The position numbers and the translations under genes were made by a program. The notes beneath the pieces were generated by a model that ran no database searches, was not told the DNA's origin, and saw only the letters and a list, made by a program, of their open reading frames with translations. Of a stretch of DNA of 64,000 nucleotides, positions 4,744 to 59,206 are shown in pieces; position 1 is the first letter of the stretch, and the number at the start of each line of letters is the position of its first letter. This stretch comes from Ostreococcus lucimarinus (lineage: Eukaryota), in NCBI GenBank assembly GCA_000092065.1, contig CP000585.1. One strand, given 5' to 3'.

Positions 4744-5655
4744 CTATTTCTGCGCTTCCGCGCGTTTCTTTGCCTGTTCCAGCGCTTCTGTCAATTTCTT
4801 CGCGGCGGCAACTTCCTTCAGGAGTGCGAAGACCAACGGGATATAATTGTGCCTACGTCGTATATTATCGTTCCTCCATTCAGCCACTTTAGCCTCTTCG
4901 ACTTCTAATTCGCGCTGCAAATGCGCGATCTCATCCGCGGCGCCAGTGCTCGACGACCGTAGTTCCTCGAGTCGCTGTGAAATTGCGATTCTAGGATCCT
5001 TCGTAACAGCCATGAGATTAAACTTGATCTCATTCGACGCGAATGACGCGATCTTCCGTTGAATCGCCGGAACCGCTACGTCTAACCAATGCCCGTCGCC
5101 AAAGCTTCCGTGATTGATCGGCCCTCTCTGCAAACCATCGAGTTCGAAGACGGAACCGCCTCTTGGTACGTAGGCAACAAAGTGAAACACGTCGTCGTCC
5201 TCTTGCGCAGGCCTAGACTGCAAGACGATTGGTTCTGGACGCGCGAACGAGTTATGTGCGTCGCGAATGATGTCCGAGTTGGAGATACTCATCCCTTTCG
5301 TTTCAGCATCGAAGTCGAGGGTGAACTCCCTTAGCGTTTGGAGCGTCTCGCCCAACTCAACTTCTTGTTCGGCGTTCAACAACACGCTAAGCACCGCTTG
5401 CGTGGCGCACGCGTTGTGAATCACTTGCGACGCGAAGAACAAATCTTGCGGTGGGTTTTCATCGACCTCAACTGCGCTCGAGCTGTGACCGCCGCGCCAC
5501 TTGAACAAAAATATGAGTCCGTAGATTGGTTCGTTACGACGAAGTTCATCAACGTCTAGCGAGTAGAGTTCTGTGAATGCGACGCCACGCGCGCCGATTC
5601 GATGGACCAGCTCGCCGAAGACCCCGGGATCGCTCTCGATGAGGCACCAGTCCAT
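4744..5655 (-). CDS. Ubiquitin C-terminal hydrolase, UCH37/UCHL5-like (peptidase C12 with C-terminal ULD/coiled-coil tail)
   Basis: ATG verified. N-terminal WCLIESDPGVF, Cys box QVIHNACATQAVLSVLLN and His box HFVAYV are present. C-terminal NYIPLVFALLKEVAAAKKL resembles the UCH37 tail. Confidence 0.85.
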   Translation of the reverse strand: MDWCLIESDPGVFGELVHRIGARGVAFTELYSLDVDELRRNEPIYGLIFLFKWRGGHSSSAVEVDENPPQDLFFASQVIHNACATQAVLSVLLNAEQEVELGETLQTLREFTLDFDAETKGMSISNSDIIRDAHNSFARPEPIVLQSRPAQEDDDVFHFVAYVPRGGSVFELDGLQRGPINHGSFGDGHWLDVAVPAIQRKIASFASNEIKFNLMAVTKDPRIAISQRLEELRSSSTGAADEIAHLQRELEVEEAKVAEWRNDNIRRRHNYIPLVFALLKEVAAAKKLTEALEQAKKRAEAQK

Positions 5656-5801
5656 CGAGTGCGCGCGCGTGAGTGTGCGGTTGAACTTCTTAGGGGTCGT
5701 GCTCGTCGGTGAAGGGCGAACGAACTTTATTCAATAAAGAGTTTGTATAATTACAGCAGTTGGCGTGCTAAAGTGCGCGCCGCGTTCGTCTTATCGCGAT
5801 A

Positions 5802-8800
5802 CTATTCCATGATGTCGTCGACAGCGCCACCGAAGCGGCCCCACAAACCAGATCGGCGAGCGACGGGCTGTTCGGGCTCTTTCTCAGGTTCATCATCGAG
5901 GACGCTCTCGTCGACGGATTCTCCGGGTGCAAGCGCACGGCTCTCGACGATTATTTCGTTGCCGTCAGAGTCATACTCGACGATTTCAAGAATCTCTTCC
6001 GTCTCTTCAAGGTAACCAGGTTCTTCTTCCTGCTCGCCGTCTTCACTCGGTTCATCTTCAACTTCTGTGTCGTAGGTCGTGGCGATCTCGACGCGCGAGC
6101 CATACCTGCGCTCCATCGATTCTTCCACGTCGTACACGACGGTGGGTTTGGATGTAGGTGAAGGCGCGCTTCGAATCGGTTCTACTGGCTCCGGCTCGGG
6201 TCGCTTTGGAATTTCCGGCATCTCGAACGTTGGCTCGTCGCCCAAGTCAAAGTTCACCGTGGTCGAACCGACGTTCGGATCTGCCATCTTTGGCTCGGGT
6301 CTAGCCATGAGCTTGTCCCGTTCCGATCTCAACTCGTTTAGCTCCGCCAGCTGAGATTTACAGGTTTCGTGACACTCATCGAGAAGCTTCTGCAGTTCTG
6401 CGGTGCCGTCGTCATGCGGCTGTGATTTCGCAAGCACCAATGCCCTCTTAAGCTCCGCGATCTCCACCTTGAGTGTGATTAGGAACTCTTCAGCGCCTTG
6501 AGCGCGTTTGTCATTCATTCTAGCCCAGTTCTCGGCGTACTCGACGGCCTCTTGGCTTGACTTGATCTCGTCTTCCAACGTGGTGACTTCTTCTCGCGTG
6601 GACGCGAGTTCGATTTCAAGGTCGTGAATTTTAGCCCGAGTTGCAGCCGAATCGCCTGTCGCACCAGCGGCTTCGAGCTTCGCGGCCGCAATAGCCTTTA
6701 CAGACTTCTCGCGTTCATCGCTCAATTCATCTTCGAGATCACTGATTCGCTCTTTGAGTGCAGCCAGCTTGCCACGCAAGTCTTCTTCGTACTCAATTCG
6801 CACATTCGAAAGCTCGCTGCGCAACTTCGTAATCTTCGCGTCGCTCGCCTTTTGGATGCGCTGACTTTCAAACATAAGTTCTTCTTGCTCGGCCGCGTAT
6901 TCTTGGACTTGCGCGCGAAGCTTAGCCAATTCAACTTCGGCGTCGTTTAACTGTTCTTGTGTACGTTCGAGCTTCCGCTGAATCAAGTCAGCATTTTGTC
7001 TGGCTTCAATCTGGAAGAAGTTGAACTCCTTCGTGATAAAGTCCTTGGCGACACGCAAACGTTCGAGCTCGGCGAGAGCCTCGTCGAGTTCCTCCTTGAG
7101 AGATACATTTTCGTCGTTCAGCTTCTTGCCTGCGCTGATGAGGTCGGCACTCTTTGAGCTCACTCGTTCGGCTTCAGCGCCGAGCTCATTCTGAGTGCTC
7201 TCGTACTCAGCCTTGAGTTCCTTCACCTGCAACTCAAGACGCTCAATGAGCGTGGTTTGCGAGGTGATCTTTAAATGCAGTTCTTTCTTCACGCGCATAG
7301 TTTCCTCTGAAGCAACATTCGTCGCAGTCATCGCGGCAGTTGCCTCACGTTCTCGCGAGGACAGCTTCTCGCGTAGCGCGTGGACTTCACGTTCTCGCTT
7401 GGTGCGCTCCGTTACGAGTTCTGTTTCAAGATGTTCAACCTTCGTTCTGAGCACGTGAATCTCTCGCAGAAGATCGGGGTCGTTGCTTGATGATGCTTGA
7501 GATTTATCCTTCGCACCTCGCTCGAGCTCGTCCAATCTAAGACGGAGTTTCATCATGTCAGAAACAGCGACGTCACGCGAATCCGTCATTTCAACAAGAT
7601 CGCCCTCGAGATCTTCGATGATTCTCGCATAATCCCGCGCCGCGTTTTCGCGATCCTTGATTTCTTTACCTATGGCGAAACTGTGATCGGAAATGATCTT
7701 TTCAACTGCCGCGGCATGTTTGCGCTCGATCGAGATGATTTCTTGCTCGAGCTCTGAGATGCGCTGTCGCAGCGTTTTCACGAGTTCATCGTTCACACCT
7801 GTATTTTTCCCCTTGACGCGTTCGGCATCACTCAACTGTCGACGCAGCAAATCAAGCTCTTTCTCCAAAAGTTCTTTTTCCGAAACATGCTCGGCGGATT
7901 TCGCTTTGAGCGCGTCCAGCTCAGACTGCAACGAGGGGATGATCGACTGTTTCGCTTTCAGCTCGGCGAGCTTTTCTTGCAAAGCGGCAAGTTTCGTCTC
8001 CAACATCTTTCGTTCCTCATCGGCATTTGCCGACGCAGGCACTTGCTTTCTCAGCTCGTCCAAATCTGCTTGCAAAGTATGAATTGTTCTTGTCGCAACT
8101 TCACCGTGCACCTTTAATTCCGTTTTGAGCGACCCTGCGAAAGAAGAAGCCAGAGACAAAAGTCTCTTGTTACGAACATCACGAATCGTGCATCGTAACA
8201 ACGCCGCCCAGCGTAATTGTGCGCGTTCGGACTTGTTAAGGCCATATTGCTTGCCCTCCATATCTGCAAGTCGCTTCGCTGCAGACGCTGCGTCGGCCAT
8301 CGCTCGAGATTGCAGATCGTTGAAATCTCGCTCGAGTCGCTTAATCTTTTCCTGAGCGGCAGCATTTGCCGACGCAGGCACTTGCTTTCTCAGCTCGTCC
8401 AAATCTGCTTGCAAAGACTGAATTGTTCTTGTCGCAACTTCACCGTGCACCTTTAATTCCGTTTTGAGCGACCCTGCGAAAGAAGAAGCCAGAGACAAAA
8501 GTCTCTTGTTACGAACATCACGAATCGTGCATCGTAACAACGCCGCCCAGCGTAATTGTGCGCGTTCGGACTTGTTAAGGCCATATTGCTTGCCCTCCAT
8601 ATCTGCAAGTCGCTTCGCTGCAGACGCTGCGTCGGCCATCGCTCGAGATTGCAGATCGTTGAAATCTCGCTCGAGTCGCTTAATCTTTTCCTGAGCGGCA
8701 GCTAGGCCAACGCTTTGCTCGCCACCAGTGAGAAGCATCTTCTCCAAATCAGAAATCGTCTCATCTCGCTGCCCGATGATAGCTTGAGACTTTGTCATCT

Positions 8801-11800
8801 CGTACGAAACTCGGATCTTTTCCTTTTCGAGCTGTGAGATCTTCAACTTGAGATTAATAATCTCCTCCTGCAACGTGCGCTCTCGCGCCTCTGAGGACGC
8901 TTCAGATTCAGTGGCACCGGCGAGGCGCTTCTGCATGCCGTCGAGCTTATCCTGTAACGAATGAATGGTGATCTGGGCGGTGTTTCTGTGCGCAACGAGT
9001 TCTCGCAATGTCGCCTTGCTGTGGCCGAGAGCAATATTAAGGAAACGTCGATGGCCTTCCTTCACTTGCAAGATGCGGCACGTCGTGCGCCAACGAAGCG
9101 CGGCACGTTCTGATTTCGTGTGCATCATTGCATCATCGTGCGTTCTCTCCAATGAGACACATCTCTTTCGTAAAACATCCAACTCCTGCTCAAGCCGCTG
9201 AGCGACGCGAGCAGCATCTTCTGCGTCTACAGCAGACTGAGCCTTGAAGTCCTCGTACTGCATTCGCAACTCAGACAACTCGCGACGCGTAGTAATGGCG
9301 TCTCCCGACATCGAAGACTTCGACTTCTCCAACTCTGTTTCATGCTCCAGTAATAGCCTTTCGAGCTCCTCAACTCTTGAATCGCGAAGTCCCAAAGTAC
9401 TAGCGTGACGGAACTTGAGCACAGTGAGTTCCTTCTTCTGAATTTGCACGAGATCGGCAATTTGCTGCTCAAAGTCGGCGTGCGCTTGCTCGGCGCGTTT
9501 CGCAGCGTCAGCGGCTTCAGCGCGCATGCGCTCTCTCAATTCTCCAAGTTGCTGCTCGAAGTTCGCCACCATAAGTTGGTATCGAGATTCAGAATCTTCA
9601 GCATCCGATGCTGCTTTCGCCTTGTGCCGAGCAGACAGACTTTCGAGTAAAGTCTTAAAGTTCGCCTGCGCTTCAAGTTCGCGTTCAGCCGCTTCATCCG
9701 CCGCCGCGCGCAGTTGTTGCTCGAAATCCGCTTGCGATTGCTGCGCGCGTGCTTCAGCGCTGTCAGCATCAGCTTTCATGCGCTTGCGTAAATCCTCGAG
9801 CTGCTTCTCGTACTCTTCCTTCATCTGCAGGAAACGAGCGTGTTCAAACGTTGCATCGGACTTTGACTTATTCTTCAATCGCTCCGCCAAGTCATCGAGC
9901 TGATTTTTGAAATCAACCTGCGCTTGGTGCTCGCGCGCAGCACTTTCATCTGCGTCTATACGTGCGCGTGTGCGAAGATCTTCGATTTGCTTGTCATAGT
10001 CGGATTTCATGCTTTGGGCTCGACTCTTCGCCTTTTCCGCGTCAAGCTTGAGTTGATTCTGGAGGTCGTCCAATTGCGCAACAAGGTTCGCCTTTTCGTC
10101 CTGAAGACGCTGCAACTCCGAAGAAGCGGTGGATTTCGTGGAATCCATCGAGGACTGTGCCTCTTGAAGCAAGAGTTCAAGCTCGGCGACGCGTGCGTCG
10201 CGCACGCGTACAGTCTCGTCGAGATCTTCGAGCGCCTTCAGCTTCGCTTTCACTTCAAGCATCTGGTCATTGAGCGAGCGAATCGTCTTGTCGGACGTCG
10301 CCGCCCAGCTGCGTGCCTCGACGAGCTCGGCGGACGTAAACGATTTTACGAGTGCGACATGACGCTGGTGCAACCTTCGTGCGCGCAAGACGCGGCACAT
10401 CCAGGACCAGCGCAACGACGTTCGTTGAGACAAAGCACGCGCTTCCGCGTCTACGAGAGCCTTTTCAGCGGCTGCAAGTTGCGAGCGGAGAGCATCACCG
10501 TCATTTGAAGCCGCGCTGGTCTTCAATGATAACCCTTCCAACTCGGCCCGCAGCGTCTCAATTGTGCTCGCCAACGTCAACTTTTCTTCGGAGGAAACTT
10601 TCAGTAACTCCTTCAGATCGCTAACAGACTTCTGAAGCGCGGTTATATCATCAGCCGCTCGACTGTTTTCACCCTTCGCCGCTTGCAAAGCAATTTTATA
10701 ACCATTGACATCTTTTTCGAGTTCAATGATTCGCGCGACTCGCTTTGCTTCTTCATCCGCGCTCCATTGTGCTTGGAGAGTTTCAATTTGGCTTCGCGAC
10801 TCGGCGAGCTCGCGGCGTAAAGTGATGACGTCCCCGGTAGAAGTAGACTTCAACGCCTCCCAATCGTTCTGTGATTCAAGTAACAGAGCCTCGAGTTCGT
10901 GAATGCGTTTGTCACGAAGTCCCATAGCACTCGCTTGACGGAACTTGACAACCGCAGAATCCTTCTTGTGAACTTCAGCGAGATCAGCCAGTTGTTGCTC
11001 GAAATCCGCTTGCGATTGCTGCGCGCGTGCTTCAGCGCTGTCAGCATCAGCTTTCATGCGCTTGCGTAAATCCTCGAGCTGCTTCTCGTACTCTTCCTTC
11101 ATCTGCAGGAAACGAGCGTGTTCAAACGTTGCATCGGACTTTGACTTATTCTTCAATCGCTCCGCCAAGTCATCGAGCTGATTTTTGAAATCAACCTGCG
11201 CTTGGTGCTCGCGCGCAGCACTTTCATCTGCGTCTATACGTGCGCGTGTGCGAAGATCTTCGATTTGCTTGTCATAGTCGGATTTCATGCTTTGGGCTCG
11301 ACTCTTCGCCTTTTCCGCGTCAAGCTTGAGTTGATTCTGGAGGTCGTCCAATTGCGCAACAAGGTTCGCCTTTTCGTCCTGAAGACGCTGCAACTCCGAA
11401 GAAGCGGTGGATTTCGTGGAATCCATCGAGGACTGTGCCTCTTGAAGCAAGAGTTCAAGCTCGGCGACGCGTGCGTCGCGCACGCGTACAGTCTCGTCGA
11501 GATCTTCGAGCGCCTTCAGCTTCGCTTTCACTTCAAGCATCTGGTCATTGAGCGAGCGAATCGTCTTGTCGGACGTCGCCGCCCAGCTGCGTGCCTCGAC
11601 GAGCTCGGCGGACGTAAACGATTTTACGAGTGCGACATGACGCTGGTGCAACCTTCGTGCGCGCAAGACGCGGCACATCCAGGACCAATGCAAAGCTGCG
11701 CGCTCTGACTTGGCTTGCACGAGCGCCTTTGCGCGCGTCGTGTTGGATTCGTCGAGCTGCTCGCGAAGAATTCTGAGCTCGCCGTGCAAGCGCGAGACTT

Positions 11801-14800
11801 GACCGGAGGATGAGCTCCTCGCTGACTCAAGTGAAGTTTCATATTCACTTATAGCGGTCTCCAGACGCTGGCGTTCGAGCTCAAGTTCATTGATACGGGC
11901 TTCCTTCTCCTCAATTTCATCCTTGTGCGTGTGACGCGCAGCAGTGAGAAGTTTTTCGTGCTCGTCGATGGAAGCTTCGAGGCGCTTGACGAGCGCTTCC
12001 AATTCAGTAATACGGCGCTGATCGACGTCCTTCTTCTTCAACGATTCAAATTTCGCGCGCAATTTTTCAACCTCGGACTTGTTCTTTTCATCCGTCTTTC
12101 GAGCTGACCTATTGGCATTGTCGAGTTTTTTCTCGAGATCACGTATCGTTTCTCGCAAGGCATCCGCTTCTCTTCTGGAAACCTTCACAGCTTCGTCATA
12201 CCGCTTTTTCGAATCCTTGTCCAGCGTGTCGAGATCCCTGTTCAGTTGCTTCGCGAGTTTACCACTCTCGGAGAGTTTCTCCTCCAAATCTTTGACTTTC
12301 ATCCGCGCTTGCGACTCATCCGAAGCCATCTTACCCTTTAACGTAGTGATTTCGTCTTGATGCGCTTCTTCCTTCTTCGCGGCGTCGTCAGCGCGTTGCT
12401 TCAGTTTGGCGTTGGATTCATTCAACGACGTAATCGTGCGCTGAGTGAACTCTACGTAGAGTTTATGATCAGCTCTCATGCCACGAGTGAAGTCCTTTGA
12501 GGTATCGAAGAACCTGTCATGACGATCTCGCTGTTTGACATTCGTAAGGAGTAGTCTCCATCTTGCCGCCGCGAGCTTCGCGGATGATGTCTCCTGGAGC
12601 CCGGCATAAAGTGAACTCGTTTCGTCGAGGCGGTTACGGAGCGTCGCGCACTCCGATCTCAATCGCGACTCTTCTGAGGAGAGTCGCGCTTTTGTTGATT
12701 CCGCGCTCGACTGGAGTTCTTTCATGCCATCCTCCAAGGAGGCGATGAGCTGTTGAAGCTCCTCAATTCGAGCTTCCGACGCCTTCTTTATCCCCAGATT
12801 CTTTGCGACTTCATTTTCGAGTTGCTTCTTAAGATTACGAATTTCGTCGTTCAGAGAGTTGATCGTTCGCTCGCTTTGCTTTTCAATTGAGGCCCGATTC
12901 TTTTCCGCTTCTTCAAACTGCTTCTTCATGACGTTCAAATTGTCATCGCGTCGCTTTCGCAACATCTTGAGCTCTTCGTCAACCTTTGATTTGCTCTTTT
13001 TACTTCCTTCCAGGTCATTCTTTAGCGCCGCAACCGTGTCACCGAGCGAACGAACCGTCTTTGTCGATGCCTCCGCGTGAAGACGGTATTCAGTCCTCAT
13101 CGACTTGACAAAGTCGCGAGCTGTGTGCGTAAATCGGATGCCACGATTTCTTAGACGAAGCTCGTTGGCCAACATCGACCAGCGAATACGGACACGATCC
13201 CTCTTCGAGGCTACGTGAGCTTCCGCTTCCGCTTTCCACGCGTCTCGGATGTCTTTGATTTCCTGCTCGAGGGAGCGAGAATATGCCGTCTTCGTTTCGT
13301 GTAACGAGTTCTGATAACTTTCGACCATACCTTCGAGCACCCCAATGCGCTCGTCGCGCGCCTTCATAGCGCCGTCGGTCTGGAACATTTCGCCTTGCAT
13401 CTGTTCGATTTGCGTCTCAAATTGCTTGGATTGCTTATGCATTTCCTTCAGGTCCGTCTTCGACTTTGCTATAGTACCTTCGAGCGACTTGTTCTTGCTT
13501 ACCATATCAGCGAGCTCCTTCTTTAGCGCTGCTATTGTGTCACCAAGCGAGCGAACTGTTTTTGTCGTGCCCTCGGCGTGAAGCCGATATTCAGTCTTCA
13601 TTGACTTGGCAAAGTCCTTTGAAGTATTCAGGAATCGAAGGTGTCGCTTACGCGTGCGAAGGAGCGAGCACAATGCAGTCCAGCGGCTCGTCGCGAGTTC
13701 ACTCTGCAAGACATCGATACGCTCTCGCAAAGTTGAAATTTCGCCTTCAAGTTCACGGGAATACCGCGTTTTTGTTTCGTGCAGAGATTCCTGATACTCA
13801 CTCACCATCTTTTCAAGCGCTTGAATACGATTATCGCGGGCGGCCAACGCAAGTTCATTATTGAATTTGAATGCGTCACTCTCACGGACTTCGTTCTTCA
13901 ATGCTGCCGCAAACTGTTTCGAATTCTGGAAGAATCGATTATGCCGAGCCTTGAATGTAAGGAAGCGCGCAAAGTGAGACCAACGAAGCGTGGCCAGCTT
14001 CGATCGATGCTCGCTGTCGCCTTCTGCAAGACGCTTTTCTAACTCGACAACACTTTCCGCCAGCGATTCTTTACTTGCCATCATATCGCTGAGGTCCTTT
14101 TCAAGCCTTTTGATCGTCTTGTCACTCTCACGGACTTCGTTCTTCAATGCTGCCGCAAACTGTTTCGAATTCTGGAAGAATCGATTATGCCGAGCCTTGA
14201 ATGTAAGGAAGCGCGCAAAGTGAGACCAACGAAGCGTGGCCAGCTTCGATCGATGCTCGCTGTCGCCTTCTGCAAGACGCTTTTCTAACTCGACAACACT
14301 TTCCGCCAGCGATTCTTTACTTGCCATCATATCGCTGAGGTCCTTTTCAAGCCTTTTGATCGTCTTGTCAAGGGACCGTATCGTTGCCGTCGCCGCGGCA
14401 GCGTGCTGCCTATATTCCTCCTTCATGGATCTGGAGAAGTCCTTTGAAACAGCGTAAAATCTGGCGTGCTTTTGAATGATTCGTGATTTGCTATACATCG
14501 CGGCCCATCGCAATCTTGCCCGTTCACTCCTTCCGTTCGCGATCGCTGAAGCGTGCGCAGCCTGTTCCGAGGTCAGCCTGCTTTGAAGGCGTGCAACTTC
14601 GCCCTCGAGGTCGCGGGAATACCTCGTCTTTGTTTCGTGCAATGAGGATTGATACTCCTGCAACATTCCTTCGAGGGTCACAATGCGCTTGTCTCGAACA
14701 TCCAAGCATTCCGCGTGATCTCCCCTGAGCTTCGCAATAATCGCTCGCAGTTCATCATTGCGCTTCGTGAGTTCGGCGTTTGTTGCTTCGGCTTTGTCTT

Positions 14801-17670
14801 GCAGAGACAAATATCTTCTGTTGATCGATTCTGTACCTTTCACGGCTGAATCCAGTGAACTACGCAACGTGTCGTTCGCTTGAGCCATGTCTCGCTCTCT
14901 GGTCGCCGAGAATTCTGCATTGACGTTGTACTGATGCTTGAGAACGCTCAATTCGTCAGCAAGTGCCAGTAATTCAGACTTAGCACTGTCGCGCGATGCC
15001 GTCATGTTAAGCAAATCATTCTGCAAAAATTCAACCTTTTGCTGCCATTCCTTGACGTTCGCTGCGTGACTTCCGCGAAGTTGTCTATCCCTGGCGTCGC
15101 TCTCACTCGTCTTAAAATCAAGCTGAAGTCTGAGTTCGGCGATTTGAGCCTGAAGCTGCTGCGCGCTCACATCAGCGGCGCGCGTCTCCACTGGCCGCAT
15201 CGATTCGACATGTTGAATCTTGATGTGCTTCTCTTCAAGAATCTGGCAGCGCTGCGTAACCTCACGAATCGATTTGGTAACTGAGACCTTGTGCTGCTCG
15301 GCCATCAAAGTCGACTTGGTGGATTCGGATACCGCAACTTCAAGCTGCTTGCTCTTAATATCGAGCCTGCTCAGATCCACGGATTGCGTGTTGATGATGT
15401 TGTAGGCTTCACGCAGCTTAGCGGCCTCGTTCTGCTTCACCAATGTGAATTCCTTGTCCTTTTCGCGCAGAAGTCGTCTGTACTTGGCGACATCTTCTTC
15501 ATTCTTCGCACGCAACTGCTTACACTGCTTCTCAAGCTGAGCCATTTTCAATTGATCCGCCTCGCTCATCGACGGCACCGCGGCTGTCTCGCCATCGGTT
15601 GCACGTACCGGATATTTTTTGGCAATTTCGTTCTCAAGCGCTTGAACTCGTCGCTGATCCTTCTCACGAAGCTCGCAGACAGTCTTCAATTCAGTCTCTG
15701 TGTTAGTGAGCTTTACGAGTAGAGCGTCGTACGCGTTCTTGAGGCTTGTTCCGCGAATGGACGCGCGCCATTTTGCAACACCGAGCGCGGCGCGACGGTC
15801 GGATAACTCGGCTGTTCTCGACTCGAGTTCGCGTTCAATGCCCGTGATTTGATCGCTAAGACTATCGATCTTCTCGTCTCGGCTACGAAGGTCACGAATG
15901 TACGACGCGTGATCCGTTTTCAATTCGAGGATTTCTGCATCTTTACTCTTTAGTGACGATTCGAGCAACCCCAAAGAGTCCGCAGCGGCTTGCTTCTGAC
16001 TCTCCATCGACGCTTGTGCGGATTTGAATGCCTCAGTGCTGGAGTGTTTCAACTCTTGGAGCGCAGCCTCACCGTCGGAGATCTGCTGTCGCAGTTGCGC
16101 AATGATAGTATTCGACTTGATGACGTGCGCGCTGTGCGCCTGTTGAGCCGCCGAGTGATCAGCGTCGAGTTTCTCCGACGCATCTCGAAGAGTCGCGATT
16201 TCCTTACGTAACTCATCGATCAACGCGGCGTTTCGCTCGTTGTCGCGGCTTTGTAACTCCTCTTTTGACTTGAGCTGCACTTGAGACTCAACTTCATCCT
16301 TCCGTAACTTTTCTATGGTGTCCAAATACTCAAGCATGCGCGTCTTGAGCGCAAAGTTTTGCATTCGCGAAGTTAAGTGCGCGAACGTCAATCCGGTTCT
16401 CCGCTCGATCAACGTTCGTTCAACGTCCGGCACACCCTGATTGGAATTGTAGTGAAGTGTGTGACGGTCGCTTGTCATCAAGTCACGGATTTTCGCACGG
16501 CAAACTTGAAGTTCTTCCTCTATCAAATGCTTGCGGCCTCGGACACTTTCTTCGCGCGATTCCGCTTTGGACAAGAGACGCATCAGTCGCGAAATCTCGG
16601 CGCGTAGATTCGTCCGATCCGTGTCAAACTTAGTGCGATCTCGCTTGCGCGACTTTTCACTCTGCGTGATCTTCGTGCGAATAATGGTCGTCTCGCGTAC
16701 GTGCGACTCAATGCTCTCCTTCAACTTGCGCTCAATCACCGTCGTCGTGCTCTGCGACTGCTCCAACTCCTTCGTTAGAAGCTTGATTTCTGAGGTGAGC
16801 TTCTTCGAAGTGGTTTGAAGTTCTTTCGTCGCGCTGTCGCGCTCGCCCGTCACAGCGTTGATCCGCACTCTTAAAGCATTGAGTTCATCCTTCAGGCGAT
16901 CGACTTCTTCGGACTTGCCATCGAGGCTCTTCTTGAGAGCAGCGTTTTCGATTTCAAGTTTGTGTTTGTCATCTTCCAACTTCGCGAAGGCCTCGTTGGT
17001 TGATATAGAGATGTTAATCGACGACTTGATGTCATACGAGCTCTTTAACTCGATTTCAAGCTTCGAAATGCGCTCCTGCGCGTTCGCGTTGATTTTCTCG
17101 AGCTCGATGATGTCCTTCTTCAACTTGGCGTTCAAGTCGTCGAGTTGATCGCGCTTGCGGCGTTCGTCGAGCGCATTTTGCTTAGTCACTCGATTCGCGG
17201 CCTCAATAGCAGCCTCGAGAGAGCGCTTTGCCTTTACTCGATCCTTCTCCGCGTTTGCAGTCAGTTCTTGAATCTTCTTTTCCATATGTGCCTTGAGGTC
17301 GTTCAACTCTTGCTCGAGCGCGGCCTTCGCCGAACGCTCCTCGCCGAGCCAGCGCGTGTGCTCCTCGAGCGCGGCTTCTGCGGTCGCGCGTCGCTTGTGA
17401 CAGTCGCCACAATCATTGCGCTCTGCACGAAGCGCTTCTTCTGCACGTAACGCTCGAACGCGCCAACTATCATCGACAGTCTTGACTCCGCCGTCTGTGC
17501 CTCGCCATGCTTCGAGCAGGGCAAGCGGTTCAACACGAAAACTCACCCCCATGGGGTTATCGACGCGTTTAATGAGCGGACTCGTGCTCAACTCGGGTTC
17601 ATCGTGCACGTCAGACCCATTCGTTAACCCATCCAACAGTCGAGAGATGGCGCTTGCGGAATCTTCTTTT

Positions 17671-17711
<41 letters not shown>

Positions 17712-17981
17712 TGCCTTGGGCTTGGGCTTCTCTCTCTTCGGCCTTGGCGACGGCGAGCGCCTCTCTCTCGCCTCGCGCGGCCGATTTATGAAATCATCCC
17801 GACTTTGTCTGGTATCGACCCCCAAAAGCATCCCTTTGAAGAAATTCACTGATTTCCCGTTCGCCTCCCCGTTCTTGGCCCCCGTCCTCGTCTTACCGTC
17901 CGTCGGCGGAAGTTCGCACCCTTCGCCGCCGAATCGGCACTCTGCGCGCGCGCGAGCGATCATCGCACCATCGTCAATCAT
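5802..17981 (-). CDS. Giant (about 4,060 aa) coiled-coil protein with an N-terminal poly-Pro tract, at least 11 copies of a Trp-containing ~45-aa module, and an acidic C-terminal tail
   Basis: A single uninterrupted 12.2-kb ORF. The track start at 17987 is a TTG; the first ATG is the third codon, at 17981-17979. Heptad-like E/K/R/L/Q-rich sequence runs throughout. The module (K)SERAxLRWxxxxxxxRxxxRFxxxSKDFxxSMxxEYRLH...KTIRSL recurs. It ends in the acidic EDEPSEDGEQEEEPGYLEETEEILEIVEYDSDGNE. Undetected introns cannot be excluded. Confidence 0.7.
8024..8700. repeat. Intragenic tandem duplication, 2 x ~339 bp, near-identical, inside the giant coiled-coil gene
   Basis: The sequence from gcatttgccgacgcaggcacttgctttctcagctcgtcc through to cttaatcttttcctgagcggca occurs at about 8024-8360 and about 8361-8700 with only a few mismatches. 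The track shows identical 76-aa antisense ORFs at 8125..8355 and 8464..8694. It duplicates a 113-aa protein segment. Confidence 0.9.
9706..11693. repeat. Intragenic segmental duplication: two near-identical ~710-bp copies (9706-10415 and 10984-11693) separated by 568 bp (copy starts 1278 bp apart), inside the giant coiled-coil gene
   Basis: Identical strings such as ttgctcgaaatccgcttgcgattgctgcgcgcgtgcttcagcgctgtcagcatcagctttcatgcg begin at 9721 and 10999. Identical antisense ORFs sit at 9924.. and 11202... The duplication covers an approximately 235-aa protein segment. More diverged paralogous copies of the same unit exist elsewhere, for example about 9390-9480 against 10925-10990. Confidence 0.9.
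13875..14370. repeat. Intragenic tandem duplication, 2 x 246 bp, near-identical, inside the giant coiled-coil gene
   Basis: The sequence gtcactctcacggacttcgttcttcaatgctgccgcaaactg... occurs at 13875 and 14121. The track shows identical antisense ORFs at 13990.. and 14236... It duplicates an 82-aa segment. Confidence 0.9.
17673..17712. repeat. (GGC)13 microsatellite encoding the poly-Pro tract (P14) of the giant protein
   Basis: The run ggcggcggcggc... is visible. On the minus strand the CCG frame gives PPPPPPPPPPPPPP. Confidence 0.9.
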
Positions 17982-18808
17982 CGTCAATCGCGGTCATCGC
18001 GCGCGTTCCGATTCGCGCGCGTTCGCCTCGCCTTCGCTCGCCTCGCCTCGCCTCGCCCGCCGCGTTCAACCGCACGTACTCGCCAACCATTCAAATTTAT
18101 CGCTCCGCATCGACGCCAACGTCTCATCCGACCCCTTCGTCGTCCTCGCCCAATCCTCGCGTCCGATCGGCGTCGTCGGTCGCGCGCTCATCGCGCCTCG
18201 ATCGCCTCCGCGCCGGTCTCACGCGCGCGAACGCGACGCGATTCGAACGTTCGTTGATTCGCAATCGCAATCGCGATTCGTTCCGTGGGACGACCGTCCG
18301 CGCGGTCTCGTTCGCGTCGTTCGCGTTCGCTCGCGGTGCGCGCGCGCGTGCGTTCGCTCGCGCTCGCGCTCGCGCTCGCGCTCGCGTCGACGGCGCCGAA
18401 CACTGCCGCGCGCGCGCCTTCGGAATTGAATTCCCGAATCGAGGCCGACGCGTCATCCTCGCGCTCGACGAGTCACGACCCGTCGCGAGTGGATTTCTCA
18501 TAATACACACACGGACCGTCGCCGCCGCGGCGCCGCGCGAAGGGTCGGTCGCGCGAGTGCGCGGCGCGGACCTCGCGCGCGCGTCGAGCGACGCGTTCGC
18601 GCGCGCGCGGATCGACGCGCGCGAGCGCCCGAAGCGTCCGCGCGGACGCGCGACGGCGTCGACGCGAAAAAGCGGCGACGCGCGGTGGAATCGCGACGAA
18701 AGGACGCCGAACGGACGGACGCGGAGAATCGAACGAGCGACGGCGTGACGCGCGAGCGGACGCGCGCGCGCGCGAGTGGACGCGCGTCGGACGCGAGCGT
18801 CGAAGACG
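17982..18808. promoter_or_regulatory. Divergent (bidirectional) promoter / 5'UTR region between the giant coiled-coil gene (-) and the ACT-domain kinase (+); contains simple repeats
   Basis: The two ATGs face away from each other. The region contains (GCCTCG)n at about 18033-18058, (CGCTCG)n at about 18355-18400, and a cgcaatcgcaatcgcgattcg near-palindrome at about 18258. The inference is positional. Confidence 0.4.
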
Positions 18809-31497: not shown

Positions 31498-31589
31498 CGA
31501 GCGCGCGCGCGCGTCTCGGCGCTCGACGGCTCGAGCGAGGCGCGCGGCGCGGTGTGCGGCGCGCGCGAGATCGCGACGCGCGGTGCGTC
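31498..31589. promoter_or_regulatory. 92-bp divergent promoter region between the hypothetical membrane protein gene (-) and DNAJC17 (+)
   Basis: The two verified ATGs are at 31497 (-) and 31590 (+). Confidence 0.4.
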
Positions 31590-31670
31590 ATGGCGGACGT
31601 CGACGAGAACGCGTACGCCGCGCTGGGACTGGCGTTCGAGGACGCGCCGAGCGAGGCGACGATTAAAAAG
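31590..31670 (+). CDS. DNAJC17: DnaJ homolog subfamily C member 17-like (J-domain + RRM protein), exon 1
   Basis: ATG at 31590. It encodes MADVDENAYAALGLAFEDAPSEATIKK, the start of a J domain, and is followed immediately by GTGCGT. Confidence 0.8.
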
Positions 31671-31813
31671 GTGCGTCGAGCGCGCGACGCGCGCGACGCG
31701 CGACGCGCGGGGCGACGCGACGCGCGCGACTCGACGATTTCGCATTCGCATTCGCATTCGAAACGACGACTGACGACGACGACGACGACGACGACGCGCG
31801 CGAAAACTCGCAG
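31671..31813 (+). other. DNAJC17: Spliceosomal intron (143 nt, GT..AG, phase 0) splitting the J domain of DNAJC17
   Basis: Donor is AAG|GTGCGT at 31671. Acceptor is ...aaaactcgCAG| ending at 31813. Splicing joins ...ATIKK to AFRKLALKCHPDK, restoring the invariant HPD motif. The intron contains (CATTCG)3 and (GACGAC)8 tracts. Confidence 0.8.
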
Positions 31814-32677
31814 GCGTTCCGAAAACTCGCGCTGAAATGCCACCCCGATAAGCGGCCGGCGTCGGAGCGCGAGCGGGCGGAGAAGGAGTTTGACGCGCTG
31901 CGACGCGCGAGCGACGCGCTGCTCGACGTCGACGCGCGACGCGCGTTGGATGATTTCCTGCGCGCGAAAGCGGCGCGAGCGCGCGCGCACGCGGCGCACG
32001 GAGCGAAGAGAAAACGAGATTTAGAGGATCTGGAGGCGCGGGAGCGGAAGGCGGCGAGCGCGGGGGAGGTGGGGGCGGAGCGCGCGGCGCGAGAGCGGTT
32101 GCGAGGCGAGTTGGAGCGTTTGCGGCGTCGACGCGAGGAAGCGACGCGGGGGGGGAAGGCGCGAGATGGCGATGGCGTGGGGACGGCGGCGACGACGTCG
32201 ACGGTGCCGGAGCACTTGTATCGAGCGCTCAAGGTGGTGTGGCGACGCGACGGCGACGCGGACGACGACGCGTACTCGGCCAAGGAGCTGCGGGAGATTT
32301 TTGAAACCTTTGGTCGCATCGAGGACGTCGTGATTCGCGAGGGGAAGAAGAAGAAAGGCAGCGCGCTCGTCGTGTTTGCAGACGGCGACGCGTGCGCCAC
32401 GGCGTCTGGGGCGACGTGTGGGCGGTCGAGTAATCCGTTGGTCGTCGCGCGCGCCGCGATTCCTCCGAAAGTCGACGCGGGGGAACCGGCGAAGCGACGG
32501 GACGACGCGGCGTCGGGAGGCGTTTCACCGGCGCCGGCGAGCGAAACGACCGCGGCTCGAGCGCCGAGCGTCGCGAATCTAGACTTTGAGAGCGTGGTGC
32601 TGGAGCGATTGAAACGCGCGCAAGAGCGCGCTCGGCTCGTCGCAGAGGCGGAAGCGGAAGGCGACGACGAATCGTGA
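31814..32677 (+). CDS. DNAJC17: DNAJC17-like, exon 2 (rest of the J domain, Arg/Glu-rich coiled coil, C-terminal RRM)
   Basis: It encodes AFRKLALKCHPDKRPASERERAEKEFDALRRASDALLD...LKVVWRRDG...ELREIFETFGRIEDVVIREGKKKKGSALVVFADGDACATA, which is RRM-like. It is in frame with the track ORF at 31946..32677. Confidence 0.8.
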   Translation, partial: AFRKLALKCHPDKRPASERERAEKEFDALRRASDALLDVDARRALDDFLRAKAARARAHAAHGAKRKRDLEDLEARERKAASAGEVGAERAARERLRGELERLRRRREEATRGGKARDGDGVGTAATTSTVPEHLYRALKVVWRRDGDADDDAYSAKELREIFETFGRIEDVVIREGKKKKGSALVVFADGDACATASGATCGRSSNPLVVARAAIPPKVDAGEPAKRRDDAASGGVSPAPASETTAARAPSVANLDFESVVLERLKRAQERARLVAEAEAEGDDES

Positions 32678-32851: not shown

Positions 32852-33271
32852 TCACTTGGCGTACTTCGCCGTCCACTCTCGCGCCGTTTGCAGCGCTCCG
32901 TGTTCGTCCGTTTTCCAGTGCTCCGCCACGTTCTCTCGCAAAGGGTCATCTGGGTTCGGCGCGCTCATCAACGCCTGCACGCTGAGTAAAATCGTACGAA
33001 TCTGCAGCGCCGGAGACCACTTATCCTTCAACACGTCCAAACAGATGCGCCCAATCTTATCCGTGTTCGGGTGATAAATTTTCGTCCTGAAGAACACCTC
33101 CGGCGGCGCCATGGGATAATCCGCGGGTAAGAACAGCTCCAACTTGAACTTCCCGCCCTCGTACGCCGTTCCCCGCGGTCCCTCCACGACGACGAAAAAG
33201 TGTCGCAGGTTCGTCTCGCTCACCTCCACCGCGATCCCCGGAATCGGTTCCTGCTGCAATCGCTGCGCCTC
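32852..33271 (-). CDS. UBE2N: Ubiquitin-conjugating enzyme E2 N (Ubc13), exon 2
   Basis: It encodes [32 protein letters not shown]...[60 protein letters not shown]...EWTAKYAK. This is near-identical to human UBE2N (…[60 protein letters not shown]…). Confidence 0.9.
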
Positions 33272-33496
33272 CTGCGTCGTCATCGCGCGTCGCGCGCGTC
33301 GTTTCGTCATTCTCGCGTCGTCGCGTCTCGTCGCCTTCCCGTCTCCCGTCTCGCGCGCGCCGTTTTCCCGCGCGTCGCCTTCGCCGCGGTCCGCCGTCGT
33401 CGCGCCCGATTTCACCGCGTCGCGCGTCGTCGTCTCGTTCGTCGTCGTCGTCGTCGTCGCCTTCGCGTCGTCGCCTTCGTCGCGCGTCCGCCGCAC
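33272..33496 (-). other. UBE2N: Spliceosomal intron (225 nt, GT..AG, phase 0) in UBE2N, in frame and stop-free, and therefore masked inside a long ORF
   Basis: Minus-strand donor is AAG|GTGCGG at 33496 and acceptor is acgacgCAG|GAG ending at 33272. Splicing gives [26 protein letters not shown], which aligns with human MAGLPRRIIKETQRLLAEPVPGI. The intron has a (GACGAC)n tract that encodes poly-T if left unspliced. Confidence 0.85.
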
Positions 33497-33535
33497 CTTG
33501 AGGATCCGTCGCGGGAGCGACGACGCGTCCGCCAT
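33497..33535 (-). CDS. UBE2N: UBE2N (Ubc13), exon 1 (13 codons, [13 protein letters not shown])
   Basis: ATG verified (cat at 33533-33535). The 53 in-frame codons the track places upstream ([11 protein letters not shown]...) are not coding. Confidence 0.85.
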
Positions 33536-33669
33536 CCTCGTCGACCGGCGTCGCCGCGTTCGCGCGCGCGCGTCGCTCGCGTCGCGCGCGTCGCGCGCGT
33601 CGCCGCCCTCGCGCGCTCTCGCGCGTCTCGCGCGCGCGCGCTCGTCGTGCGTCGACGCCGCGCGTCGCG

Positions 33670-34683
33670 ATGTTCGGTCGCGTCGTCGCGGCACTCGCGC
33701 GCGCGATGGCGCCGACGCGCGTCGCCGACGCGCGTCGACGCGGGCCGCACGCGCGCGGGGTCGCGCTCTTCGTCGCGCTCGCGCTGCAGTACGCGTCGCA
33801 GCCGTTCCTGCGCGCGCGCTACGCGGCGAACGCGCGCGCGTCGGCGCTCGTGCTGAGCGTCGAGATCGCCAAGGCGACGCTGTGCGCGTGCGCGCTGCTG
33901 CGACGACGCGAGACGCGAGGGGCGCTGCGACGGGCGTCCGCGCGGTCGCTGCTCGCGTCGGGCGCGCCGGCGGCGGTGTACGCGGCGCAGAACGTGCTGC
34001 TGCAGAGGGGCGCGCGCGCGCTGGACGGCGTGACGTTCAACTGCCTGAACCAGACGAAGCTCGCGAGCGCGGCGGCGTTTCTGTGGCTGGGAGGGGCGCG
34101 GCAGAGCCGAGCGCAGTGCTTGGCGCTGGTGGGGACGCTCGCGGCGGCGGTGAATCTGTTCGGGGGGGAGACGGCGGCGAGCGGCGGCGGCGGCGCGGCG
34201 AGCGCGGCGGCGCGCGCGGCGGGCGCGACGAGCGTGTTGGTGGCGTCTGCGCTGTCGGGATTGTCGGGAGCGATGTGTCAGTTCGCGCTGCAGGGGAGCG
34301 AGAAGCTTCCGGCGATGATGACGCTGGAGATGGCGATCACGGGGGTGCCGATGGTGTTGCTCGCGGAGCGCGTCGCCGCCGGCGACGAGTTTCGCCTGAG
34401 CGCGGTGTACGAGTCGTGGACGGCTTGGGCGCTCGTTCCCGTGCTGTCGAGCGCGATCGGTGGGATACTGGTGGGGGAGATCACGAAGCGATTAGGTTCG
34501 ATCGCGAAGGGGTTCGCCGTGACGTGCGGTTTGGTGCTGACGGGGGTGTTTCAGAGCGTCTTCGCGGGCGCGGCGCCGCCTCGCGCGCACGTCGTGAGTT
34601 TGATCGTCATCGTCATCAGCACTTGGGTGCACACCGCGTTTCCGCCAGTCGAGAAGCGTAAGAAGAAGCGCAAGACGGGTTGA
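33670..34683 (+). CDS. Nucleotide-sugar transporter (SLC35A/UDP-galactose-CMP-sialic acid transporter family)
   Basis: A multi-pass membrane protein. The motif region is [40 protein letters not shown], and it has a C-terminal basic tail KRKKKRKTG. My hand-indexing of the start is within 1 nt of the track value. Confidence 0.75.
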
Positions 34684-38291: not shown

Positions 38292-38419
38292 CTAAATGTA
38301 ACCCATTCGCCGCGTTCGCCGCGCCTCGCGCGAGTTGGTCTGCGCGCCGAGTCCAACCGTCAGTCACGTCGTCTCGCGCGTCGTCTCGCGCGTCGCGTCG
38401 AGCGTCCGCGCGCACGAAC
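38292..38419 (-). other. PEX5: Proposed spliceosomal intron (128 nt, GT..AG, phase 1) in PEX5 that joins an out-of-frame first exon to the main ORF
   Basis: Minus-strand donor is CGAG|GTTCGT at 38419 and acceptor is TTACATTTAG|CG ending at 38292. The 1+2 phase joins ...QRASER to A-REGLLDGVEDV... in the main frame. That an intron exists is near-certain because of the frame change, but the exact acceptor is a model. Confidence 0.55.
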
Positions 38420-38588
38420 CTCGTTCGCTCGCGCGCTGTATCTGTTGTTCGCGCGCGCGCGTGCCTCGATCGCCGAGTAAGACGTCGGCGACGCGCGCGA
38501 TTGGATTCGCGGCGCTCGACGGACCGGCGCCGTCGCTGGGTTCGCACGACGCGCCGCCGGTCGCGAGATCGCGCATGAACCTCGACAT
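38420..38588 (-). CDS. PEX5: PEX5, exon 1 (MSRFMRDLATGGASCEPSDGAGPSSAANPIARVADVLLGDRGTRAREQQIQRASER)
   Basis: ATG verified (cat at 38586-38588). MRDLATGGASC...NPI matches the conserved PEX5 N-terminus (Arabidopsis MAMRDLVNGGAAC...NPLGAL). It lies in a different frame from the 776-aa track ORF, whose first ~150 Arg-rich residues are therefore not coding. Confidence 0.8.
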
Positions 38589-48884: not shown

Positions 48885-49002
48885 ATGGCGGACACGAACC
48901 GAATCATGAAAGAGCTGCGCGAGATCGCGAGCGACGTCGCGTCGCAGGTCAAGGTGACGCAGCACGGGGACAGTTTGGTGCACATGAAGGGCACCATCGC
49001 GG
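48885..49002 (+). CDS. UBE2K: Ubiquitin-conjugating enzyme E2 K (UBC core + C-terminal UBA), exon 1
   Basis: ATG verified at 48885. It encodes MADTNRIMKELREIASDVASQVKVTQHGDSLVHMKGTIAG, matching human UBE2K (MANIAVQRIKREFKEV...IKVDLVDENFTELRGEIAGP). Confidence 0.9.
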
Positions 49003-49070
49003 GTGCGTGCGCGCGATCGCGACGCGGCGAAACGCGTCGCGAGAGACTGACGGGCGACGGCCGCGCGCAG
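49003..49070 (+). other. UBE2K: Spliceosomal intron (68 nt, GT..AG, phase 1) in UBE2K
   Basis: Donor is G|GTGCGT at 49003 and acceptor is gcgCAG| ending at 49070. G plus GA reconstitutes a Gly codon, giving ...TIAG-PSETVYEGGTF..., which aligns with human ...EIAGPPDTPYEGGRY.... The length is not a multiple of 3, which explains why the two exons fall in different track ORFs (48885..49157 and 48365..49531). Confidence 0.9.
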
Positions 49071-49531
49071 GACCGAGCGAGACGGTGTACGAGGGCGGGA
49101 CGTTTCACATCGACATACAGATCGGGGCGTCGTATCCGTTCGAACCGCCGAAGATGAAGTTTCTCACCAAGGTGTGGCATCCAAACGTGTCGAGCCAGAC
49201 GGGGGCGATTTGCCTGGACGTGCTGAAGGATCAGTGGTCGCCGGCGTTGACGCTGAAGACGGCGCTGTTGTCGTGTCAGGCGCTGCTGGCGGCGCCGGAA
49301 CCGGACGATCCGCAGGACGCGCAGGTGGCGCAGATGTACACGGAACGACGAGGGGAGTTCGACGAGACGGCGAGGACGTGGACGAAGAAGTACGCCACGG
49401 AGGATCAGAAGGATCCGGTCGTCGGGGAGTTGATGGAGATGGGGTTCAGTGAGGGTGCGGTATTGAAAGCGCTGACGAAGTGCGGTGGGAATAAGGATCG
49501 CGCGGTCGAGGAGCTGTTGGGGGGGGCTTGA
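49071..49531 (+). CDS. UBE2K: UBE2K, exon 2 (UBC fold remainder + UBA domain)
   Basis: It encodes [69 protein letters not shown]...ELMEMGFSEGAVLKALTKCGGNKDRAVEELLGG. This closely matches human UBE2K ([69 protein letters not shown]...LCAMGFDRNAVIVALSS). Confidence 0.9.
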
Positions 49532-57650: not shown

Positions 57651-58120
57651 TCGCCCGTTCATCGTGTAACGCACAATCCTTCGCGCGTCGTCCCGCGTCG
57701 GCTCGTCGCCAGCCGCGCCGCGCGCGTCGCCGCACATCGGCGCACTCGATCCGCGCAGACATGGGCGGCCGCCGCGCGCACCACGAAAACGGCGATCACC
57801 CCATGTGTTCGTTCGCGGCGTGCGTGCCGCCCAAGGAGTGGAGCGCCGAGCGCGTGAGGTGCGTCGCGACGCGCGCGATCGTCGCGAGATAACGACCTCG
57901 AGATATCGCTTGAGTTTCGTTCGAAACGCGCTCGCGCGACGCGCGCGCGCGACGCGGGCGGGCGACGAGGGATGCGACCGAAGCGAACGCGCGAACGCGA
58001 CTGACGAACGACGCGCGCGCGACGCACGAACGCAGGACGTGCGTGGATGAGTGCTTTGAAAAATTGCCGAAGACGTACTACAAGGTGGAACGACGCGAGT
58101 GCGGCGGATTGGCGCGGTCG

Positions 58121-59206
58121 ATGACGCACAAGGTGAAGTTTGCGAGCGGTAACTCGTATGAGCTGGCGCTGGTGAGCGATACGCTCGGGGCGGAGGAGGT
58201 TGGGAAGAAGTTTGAGGCGATTCGCGAGGAGCACGCGGACCTGCGCGAACGGTCGCTGGCGTTGAAGGCGTATTTGAAAGAGTTGAGCGGCAAGCATAAA
58301 TTTTCGTTCGTCGTGATCGACGATACGACGAAACGTGTTTTTGCCGCGGCGACGCAGTTCAGCGCGCCGTTGTCGTTCGGCCATTCGAAGGATGGGATGC
58401 TCGTTTTGTTTTGCGGCGCGGGGGGGAAGTCGGTGGCGACGCACTGGCCGCTCAACGAGCAAGAGGTGACCCAATGCGCGCAGCACGGCGAGGCGGCGCG
58501 ACGTCGAAGCATTGATGTGAGAGATCGTCCACCCGCGAACGCGGCCGGCGGCAGTAGGCGAAGCGTGGACGGCGGTAGGCGAAGCGTGGACGGCGGCAGG
58601 CGAAGCGTGGACGGCGGTCGCCGCAGCATCGACGAAAAAGCAGTCTTCACGTCTGAAGTCGGCTGGGTCGATCCGGGCGCCACCGTGCCAGTGGATTTCA
58701 CTCACAACAGGATCGTGCTCACGCATCTCCCAGTCGGGCGCTTCGTGTACGGGCACGGGTACCTACAGCCGTACGAGTTCACCTCGTTTTGGAGCAGCGC
58801 CCAGAGCAACCGCGCCGGCGTGCCCGAGCGGGCGTTCCACAGCGGCAATGACTGGTCAAAGGAGTCGCCCAACAGCAGCCGAAGAAGTAGTTTCGACGTC
58901 AACAGCGCCGACGGCGCGCCTCGACGTTCCAGCATCGACGAACGTCATCGCAAATGGGAAAGCACCAATTCAAAGTGCGACACCGAGGCGAGTTGGAAAA
59001 AACCCGCCGCAGAAGCGAAGCGCCCGCTCCCACCGCGTTCGCCGATAAAAAGCCAAGAACCCATCGTGCCTTCGCTCGAGAAATTATCCGTCAAGGACGG
59101 CGAGAAGAAAAAGAGCTCGCTCGGGTCAAAAATCCGTCGAAACCTGTCTGTCGAAAGTCTCAAAAAAGCCTTCGGCGTCGCGGGCAAGAAATCCGAAGAC
59201 GCGTGA
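58121..59206 (+). CDS. Hypothetical Ser/Arg/Lys-rich protein containing a 4x tandem heptapeptide repeat (GGRRSVD)
   Basis: The track start at 58043 is a GTG, and the first in-frame ATG is at 58121 (MTHKVKFASGN...). The composition is protein-like (K, E, F, Y), unlike the antisense ORF at 57659..58756. No family recognised. Confidence 0.4.
   Translation: MTHKVKFASGNSYELALVSDTLGAEEVGKKFEAIREEHADLRERSLALKAYLKELSGKHKFSFVVIDDTTKRVFAAATQFSAPLSFGHSKDGMLVLFCGAGGKSVATHWPLNEQEVTQCAQHGEAARRRSIDVRDRPPANAAGGSRRSVDGGRRSVDGGRRSVDGGRRSIDEKAVFTSEVGWVDPGATVPVDFTHNRIVLTHLPVGRFVYGHGYLQPYEFTSFWSSAQSNRAGVPERAFHSGNDWSKESPNSSRRSSFDVNSADGAPRRSSIDERHRKWESTNSKCDTEASWKKPAAEAKRPLPPRSPIKSQEPIVPSLEKLSVKDGEKKKSSLGSKIRRNLSVESLKKAFGVAGKKSEDA
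58553..58636 (+). repeat. 21-bp tandem repeat x4 (GGYAGKCGAAGCGTGGACGGC-like) encoding GGRRSVD x4
   Basis: The run ggcagtaggcgaagcgtggacggcggtaggcgaagcgtggacggcggcaggcgaagcgtggacggcggtcgccgcagcatcgac is visible. Confidence 0.85.

Follow-up and report, generated by a model that had tools for sequence, protein, structure and literature searches.

Does the interval that separates a short reading frame from a longer, RRM-encoding one in Ostreococcus lucimarinus constitute a spliceosomal intron, and what kind of protein results when the two frames are joined? A first-pass annotation of the locus had claimed that the J-domain of a DNAJC17 gene is split by a 143-nt GT-AG intron, and this claim is borne out by the reading frames, the DnaJ profile, and the comparative evidence. 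Within the window (the whole 64-kb stretch of DNA that was analysed), the interval 31671-31813 is very probably a spliced intron; its splicing is deduced from the sequence rather than observed in transcripts.

Gene model and splice signals

The 27 codons of the first exon read MADVDENAYAALGLAFEDAPSEATIKK, starting with ATG 31590. This is the first ATG past the divergent upstream gene, as positions 31498-31589 contain none, and its context is tgcgtcATGG, with G at both -3 and +4. The predicted intron opens with GTGCGT and closes with CAG. Since 143 is not divisible by three, reading on without splicing leads to a stop codon (31833-31835) after 81 amino acids. From 31814 the reading is AFRKLALKCHPDK, which continues in frame into the listed ORF 31946-32677 and through to the TGA at 32675-32677; the TTG start assigned to that ORF is an artefact, because the bacterial code was used on a eukaryotic gene. 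The exon 2 frame is open over 31667-32677 (336 codons) with no ATG at all, and exon 2 of one related lineage (L007) is also devoid of methionine. With ATG 31590 being the first available, a eukaryotic ribosome would thus reach the ORF only by way of exon 1 and splicing. The product of joining both exons has 314 amino acids, with a complete J-domain and a C-terminal RRM. The positions and sequences given in the first-pass annotation were all exact; the HPD codons lie at 31841-31849 (Table 1).

Table 1. Features of the DNAJC17 locus (positions within the window) and of the orthologous introns in related lineages
Feature	Position	Strand	Remarks
Exon 1, DNAJC17 ortholog	31590-31670	+	ATG and 26 codons; J-domain helix I and first part of helix II
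Predicted phase-0 U2-type GT-AG spliceosomal intron	31671-31813	+	143 nt, 69% GC; sole frame-restoring GT..AG pair
Predicted 5' splice site GTGCGTC, preceded by exonic AAG	31671-31677	+	6 of 7 positions of the consensus GTGCGTG (PMC2483917)
Putative branch-point box GACTGACG	31768-31775	+	presumed branch A at 31773, 40 nt upstream of the acceptor
Predicted 3' splice site CAG	31811-31813	+	CAG in four lineages, TAG in the fifth
Intron simple-sequence interior	31680-31796	+	Tandem Repeats Finder
Exon 2	31814-32677	+	287 codons and TGA; rest of J-domain, charged helical linker, RRM, conserved C-terminal helix
HPD codons CAC CCC GAT, residues 37-39	31841-31849	+	columns invariant in the 13-sequence alignment
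RRM-type domain, residues 165-240	32225-32452	+	Pfam RRM_1, Foldseek
Part covered by XP_001417764.1 / ABO96057.1	32120-32677	+	exact substring, residues 130-314
Predicted spliced junction	31670/31814	+	...GATTAAAAAG/GCGTTCCGAAAA...
Intron, lineage L007/L008			131 nt; donor GTGCGA
Intron, lineage L014/L015			108 nt; donor GTGCGT
Intron, lineage L016/L017			126 nt; donor GTACGT
Intron, lineage L009/L010			133 nt; donor GTGCGA; acceptor TAG

When all GT..AG pairs with donors within 31600-31760 and acceptors within 31700-31840 were enumerated, 31671/31813 was the only one that joins both frames without a premature stop. An alternative GTGCGT donor at 31583, just 5' of the ATG, was rejected, as its use would remove the start codon together with the conserved exon 1. 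The effect of joining the exons is reflected by the Pfam DnaJ profile: the spliced product matches positions 2-63 of 63 continuously, with 49.8 bits (cut-off 27.8), whereas exon 2 alone scores 33.5 bits over positions 20-63 and the unspliced 81-aa product gives no match. Exon 1 supplies exactly the profile positions 2-19 that are absent from exon 2. The junction, IKK/AFRK, has ungapped counterparts (IKKAYRK or IKRAYRK) in the DNAJC17 proteins of Micromonas, insects, and fish, and solved J-domains (PDB matches to the product reach E-values down to 1e-08) align straight over it (e.g., PDB ID: 2dmx, which reads IKKAYRKLALRWHPDK).

A tblastn comparison with DNAJC17 orthologs, proposed in the first-pass annotation as a check on the alignment of the J-domain across the junction, matched exon 2 (E = 1e-70 for Micromonas, 1e-28 to 1e-31 for animals), with alignments that begin only at about query residue 25. 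When helix-I peptides of nine intron-free or annotated orthologs were searched against all six frames of the 64-kb window, exon 1 was the best match for three of them, the matches covering 31590/31605-31670 and ending exactly at 31670. The remaining six queries (M. pusilla, animals, and Ginkgo) gave only noise in this search, because the peptide is too short. When the contigs collected by JGI were scanned for the spliced junction, with a degenerate pattern for three lineages, no match was found; the control junction of a ubiquitin-conjugating E2 gene was not found there either, so the negative result has no power and carries no weight.

The splice signals conform to a class already described for the species. 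Irimia and Roy studied 319 introns of O. lucimarinus that are confirmed by ESTs and lie outside chromosome 2, and reported an atypical 5' consensus GTGCGTG, the motif ACTGAC in 87.2% of the introns, the extended box GACTGACG in 66.5%, and intron-length figures of about 111 and 168 nt (Table 2 in PMC2483917). Relative to these (PMC2483917), the DNAJC17 intron has the same GT/AG ends, a donor that differs only in its last position (GTGCGTC), an exact branch box, and a length of the same order; it shows no difference in kind, and it is missing from the RefSeq model. The 40 nt between the presumed branch adenine and the acceptor are at the upper end of the distances seen among the orthologous introns (22-40 nt). 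Such motifs alone prove nothing, being necessary but insufficient. The composite GTGCG[TA]...ACTGAC...YAG occurs six times on both strands of the window, compared with 6.5 +/- 3.0 in dinucleotide shuffles, i.e., with no enrichment, and was therefore dropped as stand-alone evidence. What stands above chance is the combination of a unique frame-joining pair, the completion of the DnaJ domain, and the recurrence in four other lineages.

In the proposed mechanism, the primary transcript would start within the 92-nt gap that separates exon 1 from the divergent upstream gene, and the spliceosome would recognise AAG/GTGCGTC, the branch box GACTGACG, and the acceptor CAG. Removal of the 143 nt would join codon 27 (K) to codon 28 (A) in helix II of the J-domain, and translation from the sole available ATG (31590) would give the 314-aa protein, composed, in order, of the J-domain (about residues 8-73), a long charged helix, the RRM (about residues 165-240), and the conserved C-terminal helix.

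Conservation and variation of the intron

Marine metagenome contigs provided four further Ostreococcus-type lineages, whose DNAJC17 proteins are about 60-65% identical and whose gene neighbourhood is the same. In all four, the exon 1 peptide is conserved, with a short first exon ending in ...AI(K/R)K, and a phase-0 intron occupies the identical codon boundary (Table 1); exon 2 starts with AFR(K/A)LALK.HPDK in all lineages. The donor pattern GT[GA]CG[TA] is kept in five of five lineages, and each of the four additional introns carries an ACTGAC box 22-38 nt before the acceptor. The five intron lengths, including the 143 nt in the window, span all three residues modulo 3, and retention of the intron leads to a premature stop in every one of the five lineages.

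In a multiple alignment of the introns, conservation is confined to the donor, the ACTGAC box, and the YAG acceptor, while the interiors are unrelated. Summed over lineage pairs, which are not independent, so that no probability can be attached to the counts, 71% of sites differ in the first 66 intron nucleotides, with no periodicity (159/167/144 by position modulo 3). The corresponding value for exon 1 is 35%, with differences of 60/71/97 by codon position (a third-position excess), and third positions are strongly over-represented among the differences in the first 50 codons of exon 2 (86/95/200). In five further Ostreococcus-type database proteins (P0005, P0008-P0010, and P0013), the sequence is cut off at or after exon 2, which would fit genes that are interrupted as well. 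The intron was already present in the ancestor that the sampled Ostreococcus-type lineages share.

Variation among wild marine populations of O. lucimarinus was followed in ten near-identical contigs. Compared with the 143 nt in the window, the intron measures 140 nt in six of these contigs and 139 nt in three. The variants comprise one 3-nt GAC repeat unit, a single-base deletion, and SNPs, and are located in the tandem arrays, whereas the wild contigs show 0-1 differences over 945 nt of exon. Because a single-base indel is fixed in a wild haplotype, the interval 31671-31813 is incompatible with being translated.

Three short tandem arrays, delimited with Tandem Repeats Finder, make up nearly the whole interior of the intron: GCGCGCGAC in about 6 copies (31680-31730), TTCGCA in 3.7 copies (31739-31760), and ACG in 11 copies (31763-31796). 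A blastn search of the intron against the 64-kb window found no second full copy, only short simple repeats of the (GAC)n and GCGCGA types, and an Rfam scan of the whole window at gathering thresholds returned no families. As judged by these window-wide searches, the intron is neither an introner-type repeat nor a host of a known small RNA.

Beyond Ostreococcus, the whole protein is encoded by one uninterrupted ORF in M. pusilla (P0012, whose 90%-identity cluster includes XP_003057413.1), in a second Micromonas-type lineage, and in Chloropicon primus; Micromonas has also retained the synteny with the UQ_con gene that lies downstream. The intron thus appears to be genus-wide in Ostreococcus and missing from the nearest sampled outgroups, which are Micromonas and Chloropicon; the clusters examined include no entry named Bathycoccus or O. 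tauri.

Alternative explanations and origin of the intron

It is very unlikely that the locus is not spliced at all, in which case the 81-codon ORF would be a uORF or noise, and the downstream protein, lacking helix I, would start at an internal or non-ATG codon. This explanation agrees with the database, where all calls begin at or after exon 2 (e.g., the 100%-identical P0001, a truncated 243-aa ORF call with a TTG start, and XP_001417764.1, a partial protein of 185 aa) and where the spliced N-terminus is present in no protein: among the 20 close matches and cluster members whose N-termini were inspected, none is spliced, all being truncated or reading through the intron. The truncated calls, however, come from prokaryote-type gene finders or carry a partial flag, and the exon 2 frame offers no ATG from which such a protein could start. 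Moreover, exon 1 constitutes the missing portion of the DnaJ profile and, unlike the sequence between the exons, has been conserved across five lineages, and a J-domain deprived of helix I and half of helix II would not fold as modelled. There is likewise a very slim chance that the intron is real but often retained or regulatory, the unspliced mRNA encoding the 81-aa peptide and being degraded, with feedback of the protein on its own pre-mRNA. Retention would indeed switch the gene off in all five lineages, and DNAJC17/Cwc23 proteins are tied to spliceosome disassembly and splicing efficiency (PMC6044358, PMC5958099). Yet the near-consensus donor and branch box suggest efficient constitutive splicing, and the interior consists of unconstrained simple sequence in which neither a conserved element nor an Rfam match was found.

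The probability that the insert is a recently spread introner-like element or another mobile insertion is close to negligible, even though the related genus Micromonas has documented introner elements (PMC4540971) and the Micromonas and Chloropicon orthologs are without the intron. The window contains no second copy, only simple-repeat matches, and the same position is occupied in five lineages at about 60-65% protein identity. Since these diverged lineages share the position while the interiors are unrelated, the insertion is old and bears no family resemblance. The introners of Micromonas (PMC4540971) are similar in that they, too, are Mamiellophyceae introns present in one lineage and absent from the orthologs of a sister lineage; they differ in forming repeated families with similar copies, whereas the orthologous DNAJC17 introns of Ostreococcus share only splice signals.

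An ordinary canonical intron being the preferred reading, its simplest history would be a gain in the stem lineage at an AAG/G proto-splice site. Bilaterian DNAJC17 genes, such as those of the moth Ostrinia furnacalis and the fish Centroberyx affinis, resemble that of O. lucimarinus in having a short first exon (26-27 codons) and a phase-0 first intron within the helix II codons. The position is not the same: the animal intron lies at E/IKKAYR, three codons (9 nt) upstream of IKK/AFR in Ostreococcus, and it is AT-rich in both animals, with lengths of 170 nt (moth) and about 5.9 kb (fish). Because Micromonas and Chloropicon are without the intron, an independent origin of the Ostreococcus and animal introns appears to be the simpler reading. 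A bolder proposal, which must be considered improbable, is that the stem gain at AAG/G, 9 nt from the conserved bilaterian intron, reflects parallel insertion, or sliding, into one and the same helix of the gene, and that the intron could in addition serve an intron-poor genome as an autoregulatory sensor of its splicing capacity. The idea of a sensor derives from the gene encoding a spliceosome-disassembly co-factor and from retention truncating the protein in every lineage.

Identity of the protein and consequences for annotation

The gene is identified by its homologs and predicted architecture as the DNAJC17/Cwc23 ortholog of O. lucimarinus. All named homologs are DNAJC17 proteins, those of animals being 30-35% identical over 94-99% of the length, and with animal and algal DNAJC17 queries this locus is the only strong tblastn match in the window. 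The C-terminal domain scores 25.6 bits with Pfam RRM_1 (cut-off 20.7), and the top PDB matches in Foldseek are all RRMs (target-normalised TM 0.57-0.77). An AlphaFold2 model built from a 13-sequence alignment has pLDDT values of 91-96 for residues 11-100 and contains the RRM fold. It places the K27/A28 junction within helix II (residues 22-35), ahead of the HPD loop (37-39), while residues 142-156 and 246-280 have pLDDT below 50 and are predicted to be disordered. Thus, the identification of a DNAJC17 gene in the first-pass annotation, with its HPD tripeptide and its continuation into the RRM-containing ORF, agrees with Pfam, the named homologs, and the model.

The order of a J-domain with HPD, a long charged linker, and an RRM is the same as in animal DNAJC17, S. 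pombe Cwf23, and S. cerevisiae Cwc23, and the architecture described for DNAJC17 is identical (PMC5958099). The C-terminal helix, DFESVVLERLKRAQERARL in O. lucimarinus, corresponds to DYESVVLxRMRQAAERQRL in the DNAJC17 family; in contrast to the family, the linker and the region preceding this helix are rich in alanine and arginine and predicted to be disordered. According to a preprint on Cwf23, that protein requires both its J-domain and its RRM, and orthologs in intron-rich eukaryotes carry an RRM (bioRxiv 10.1101/2024.06.27.600868). Cwc23 is a member of the NTR disassembly complex (PMC6044358), while human DNAJC17 is a speckle-localised modulator of splicing (PMC5958099); spliceosome or NTR association and Hsp70 stimulation have been described for the yeast and human proteins (PMC6044358, PMC5958099, PMC13388955). 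By homology, a spliceosome-linked function may be carried over from the family to the algal protein.

The present RefSeq entry for the gene, XP_001417764.1 ('predicted protein, partial', 185 aa), is devoid of the whole J-domain; it begins 306 nt past the acceptor and matches residues 130-314 of the spliced product exactly. This gene and its neighbours agree fully with proteins of O. lucimarinus CCE9901: XP_001417765.1 (UDP-galactose transporter), for instance, is contained letter for letter in the neighbouring ORF 33670-34683. Another intron of this class (49003-49070, 68 nt) lies elsewhere in the window, within the ubiquitin-conjugating E2 gene; its removal extends the UQ_con match from positions 37-139 to 1-139 of 140. 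This second split gene corroborates the more general view, expressed in the first-pass annotation, that the genome is intron-bearing and that listed ORFs can be exons of larger genes.

The DNAJC17 intron is an ordinary canonical intron of a signal class already known in O. lucimarinus (PMC2483917), and it leaves the knowledge of introns, J-proteins, and Ostreococcus unchanged. Its main value lies in annotation, where a two-exon, 314-aa model would take the place of the partial 185-aa RefSeq fragment. Metagenome gene calls across the Ostreococcus clade are all N-terminally truncated at this gene for the same cause. Prokaryote-style ORF calling on picoeukaryote contigs, as the locus shows, systematically drops short first exons. 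The locus also provides a tidy case of an intron that appears throughout one genus and is missing from its sister genera. With the corrected model, one of the smallest free-living eukaryotes would be credited with a complete co-chaperone of the DNAJC17/Cwc23 type.

Introns and candidate introns of the DNAJC17 class elsewhere in the window

A second intron of the window splits the gene for a ubiquitin-conjugating E2 with a UBA domain, and its class is identical to that of the DNAJC17 intron (see the table). The spliced product matches UQ_con over positions 1-139/140 with 153.5 bits, and exon 2 alone over positions 37-139 with 130 bits.

Another interval is a candidate intron with weaker support than these two. 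With it removed, a 389-codon ORF would gain a first exon of 32 codons (57761-59206, plus strand); the predicted 422-aa product contains four RRS(V/I)DGG repeats in tandem, and its sole domain match, to DUF3700, is below threshold. On the minus strand, no clear ATG-containing first exon was found for a 208-nt interval with similar signals; therefore, the interval may be an intron of the 5' UTR, or its signals may match by chance.

Introns, candidate introns and E2 genes in the window
Feature	Position	Strand	Size and phase	Signals	Remarks
E2 (ubiquitin-conjugating)	48885-49531	+	192 aa		UBA domain C-terminal; split by intron 49003-49070
Intron	49003-49070	+	68 nt, phase 1	GTGCGTG, GACTGACG, CAG	
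Candidate intron	57859-58035	+	177 nt, phase 2	GTGCGT...GACTGACG...CAG	
Interval	38340-38547	-	208 nt	GTGCGA, GACTGACG, CAG	Directly 5' of minus-strand 655-codon ORF
E2 (UQ_con)	32852-33694	-			Immediately downstream of DNAJC17, convergent

Surroundings of DNAJC17 and window composition

The E2 gene convergent with DNAJC17 was called at 280 aa from a GTG (ORF call) and at 227 aa in the metagenome calls, whereas the products called in relatives comprise only 115-168 aa; hence its true start, or the presence of a further intron, is uncertain. In the ORF call, the protein carries a long low-complexity N-terminal extension rich in arginine, aspartate, and threonine. On the other side of DNAJC17, a second copy of the GTGCGT hexamer (31583-31588) lies 1 nt 5' of the start codon. 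Its use as a donor would delete the ATG together with exon 1; presumably, it is not used.

Between about 4000 and 18000, the GC content is 0.50-0.55, compared to about 0.60-0.69 elsewhere in the window, and the AT skew is strongly negative (as low as -0.25). These values suggest that the minus strand carries either a single very large gene or a segment of distinct composition. Noise matches of the DNAJC17 tblastn search also cluster at about 4000-18000, in frame -3. An Rfam scan of the whole 64 kb at the gathering threshold returned no RNA families.

An intron indel in a wild haplotype

Among the marine metagenome contigs representing wild variants of the DNAJC17 locus (L011-L013), one haplotype has a 1-nt deletion in the intron. 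As a result, a bacterial-style gene call begins 5' of the DNAJC17 ATG, crosses the intron and continues into exon 2, yielding a spurious 373-aa 'protein' with a DnaJ Pfam match (database entry P0213). This entry illustrates how artefactual database proteins arise from intron indels.
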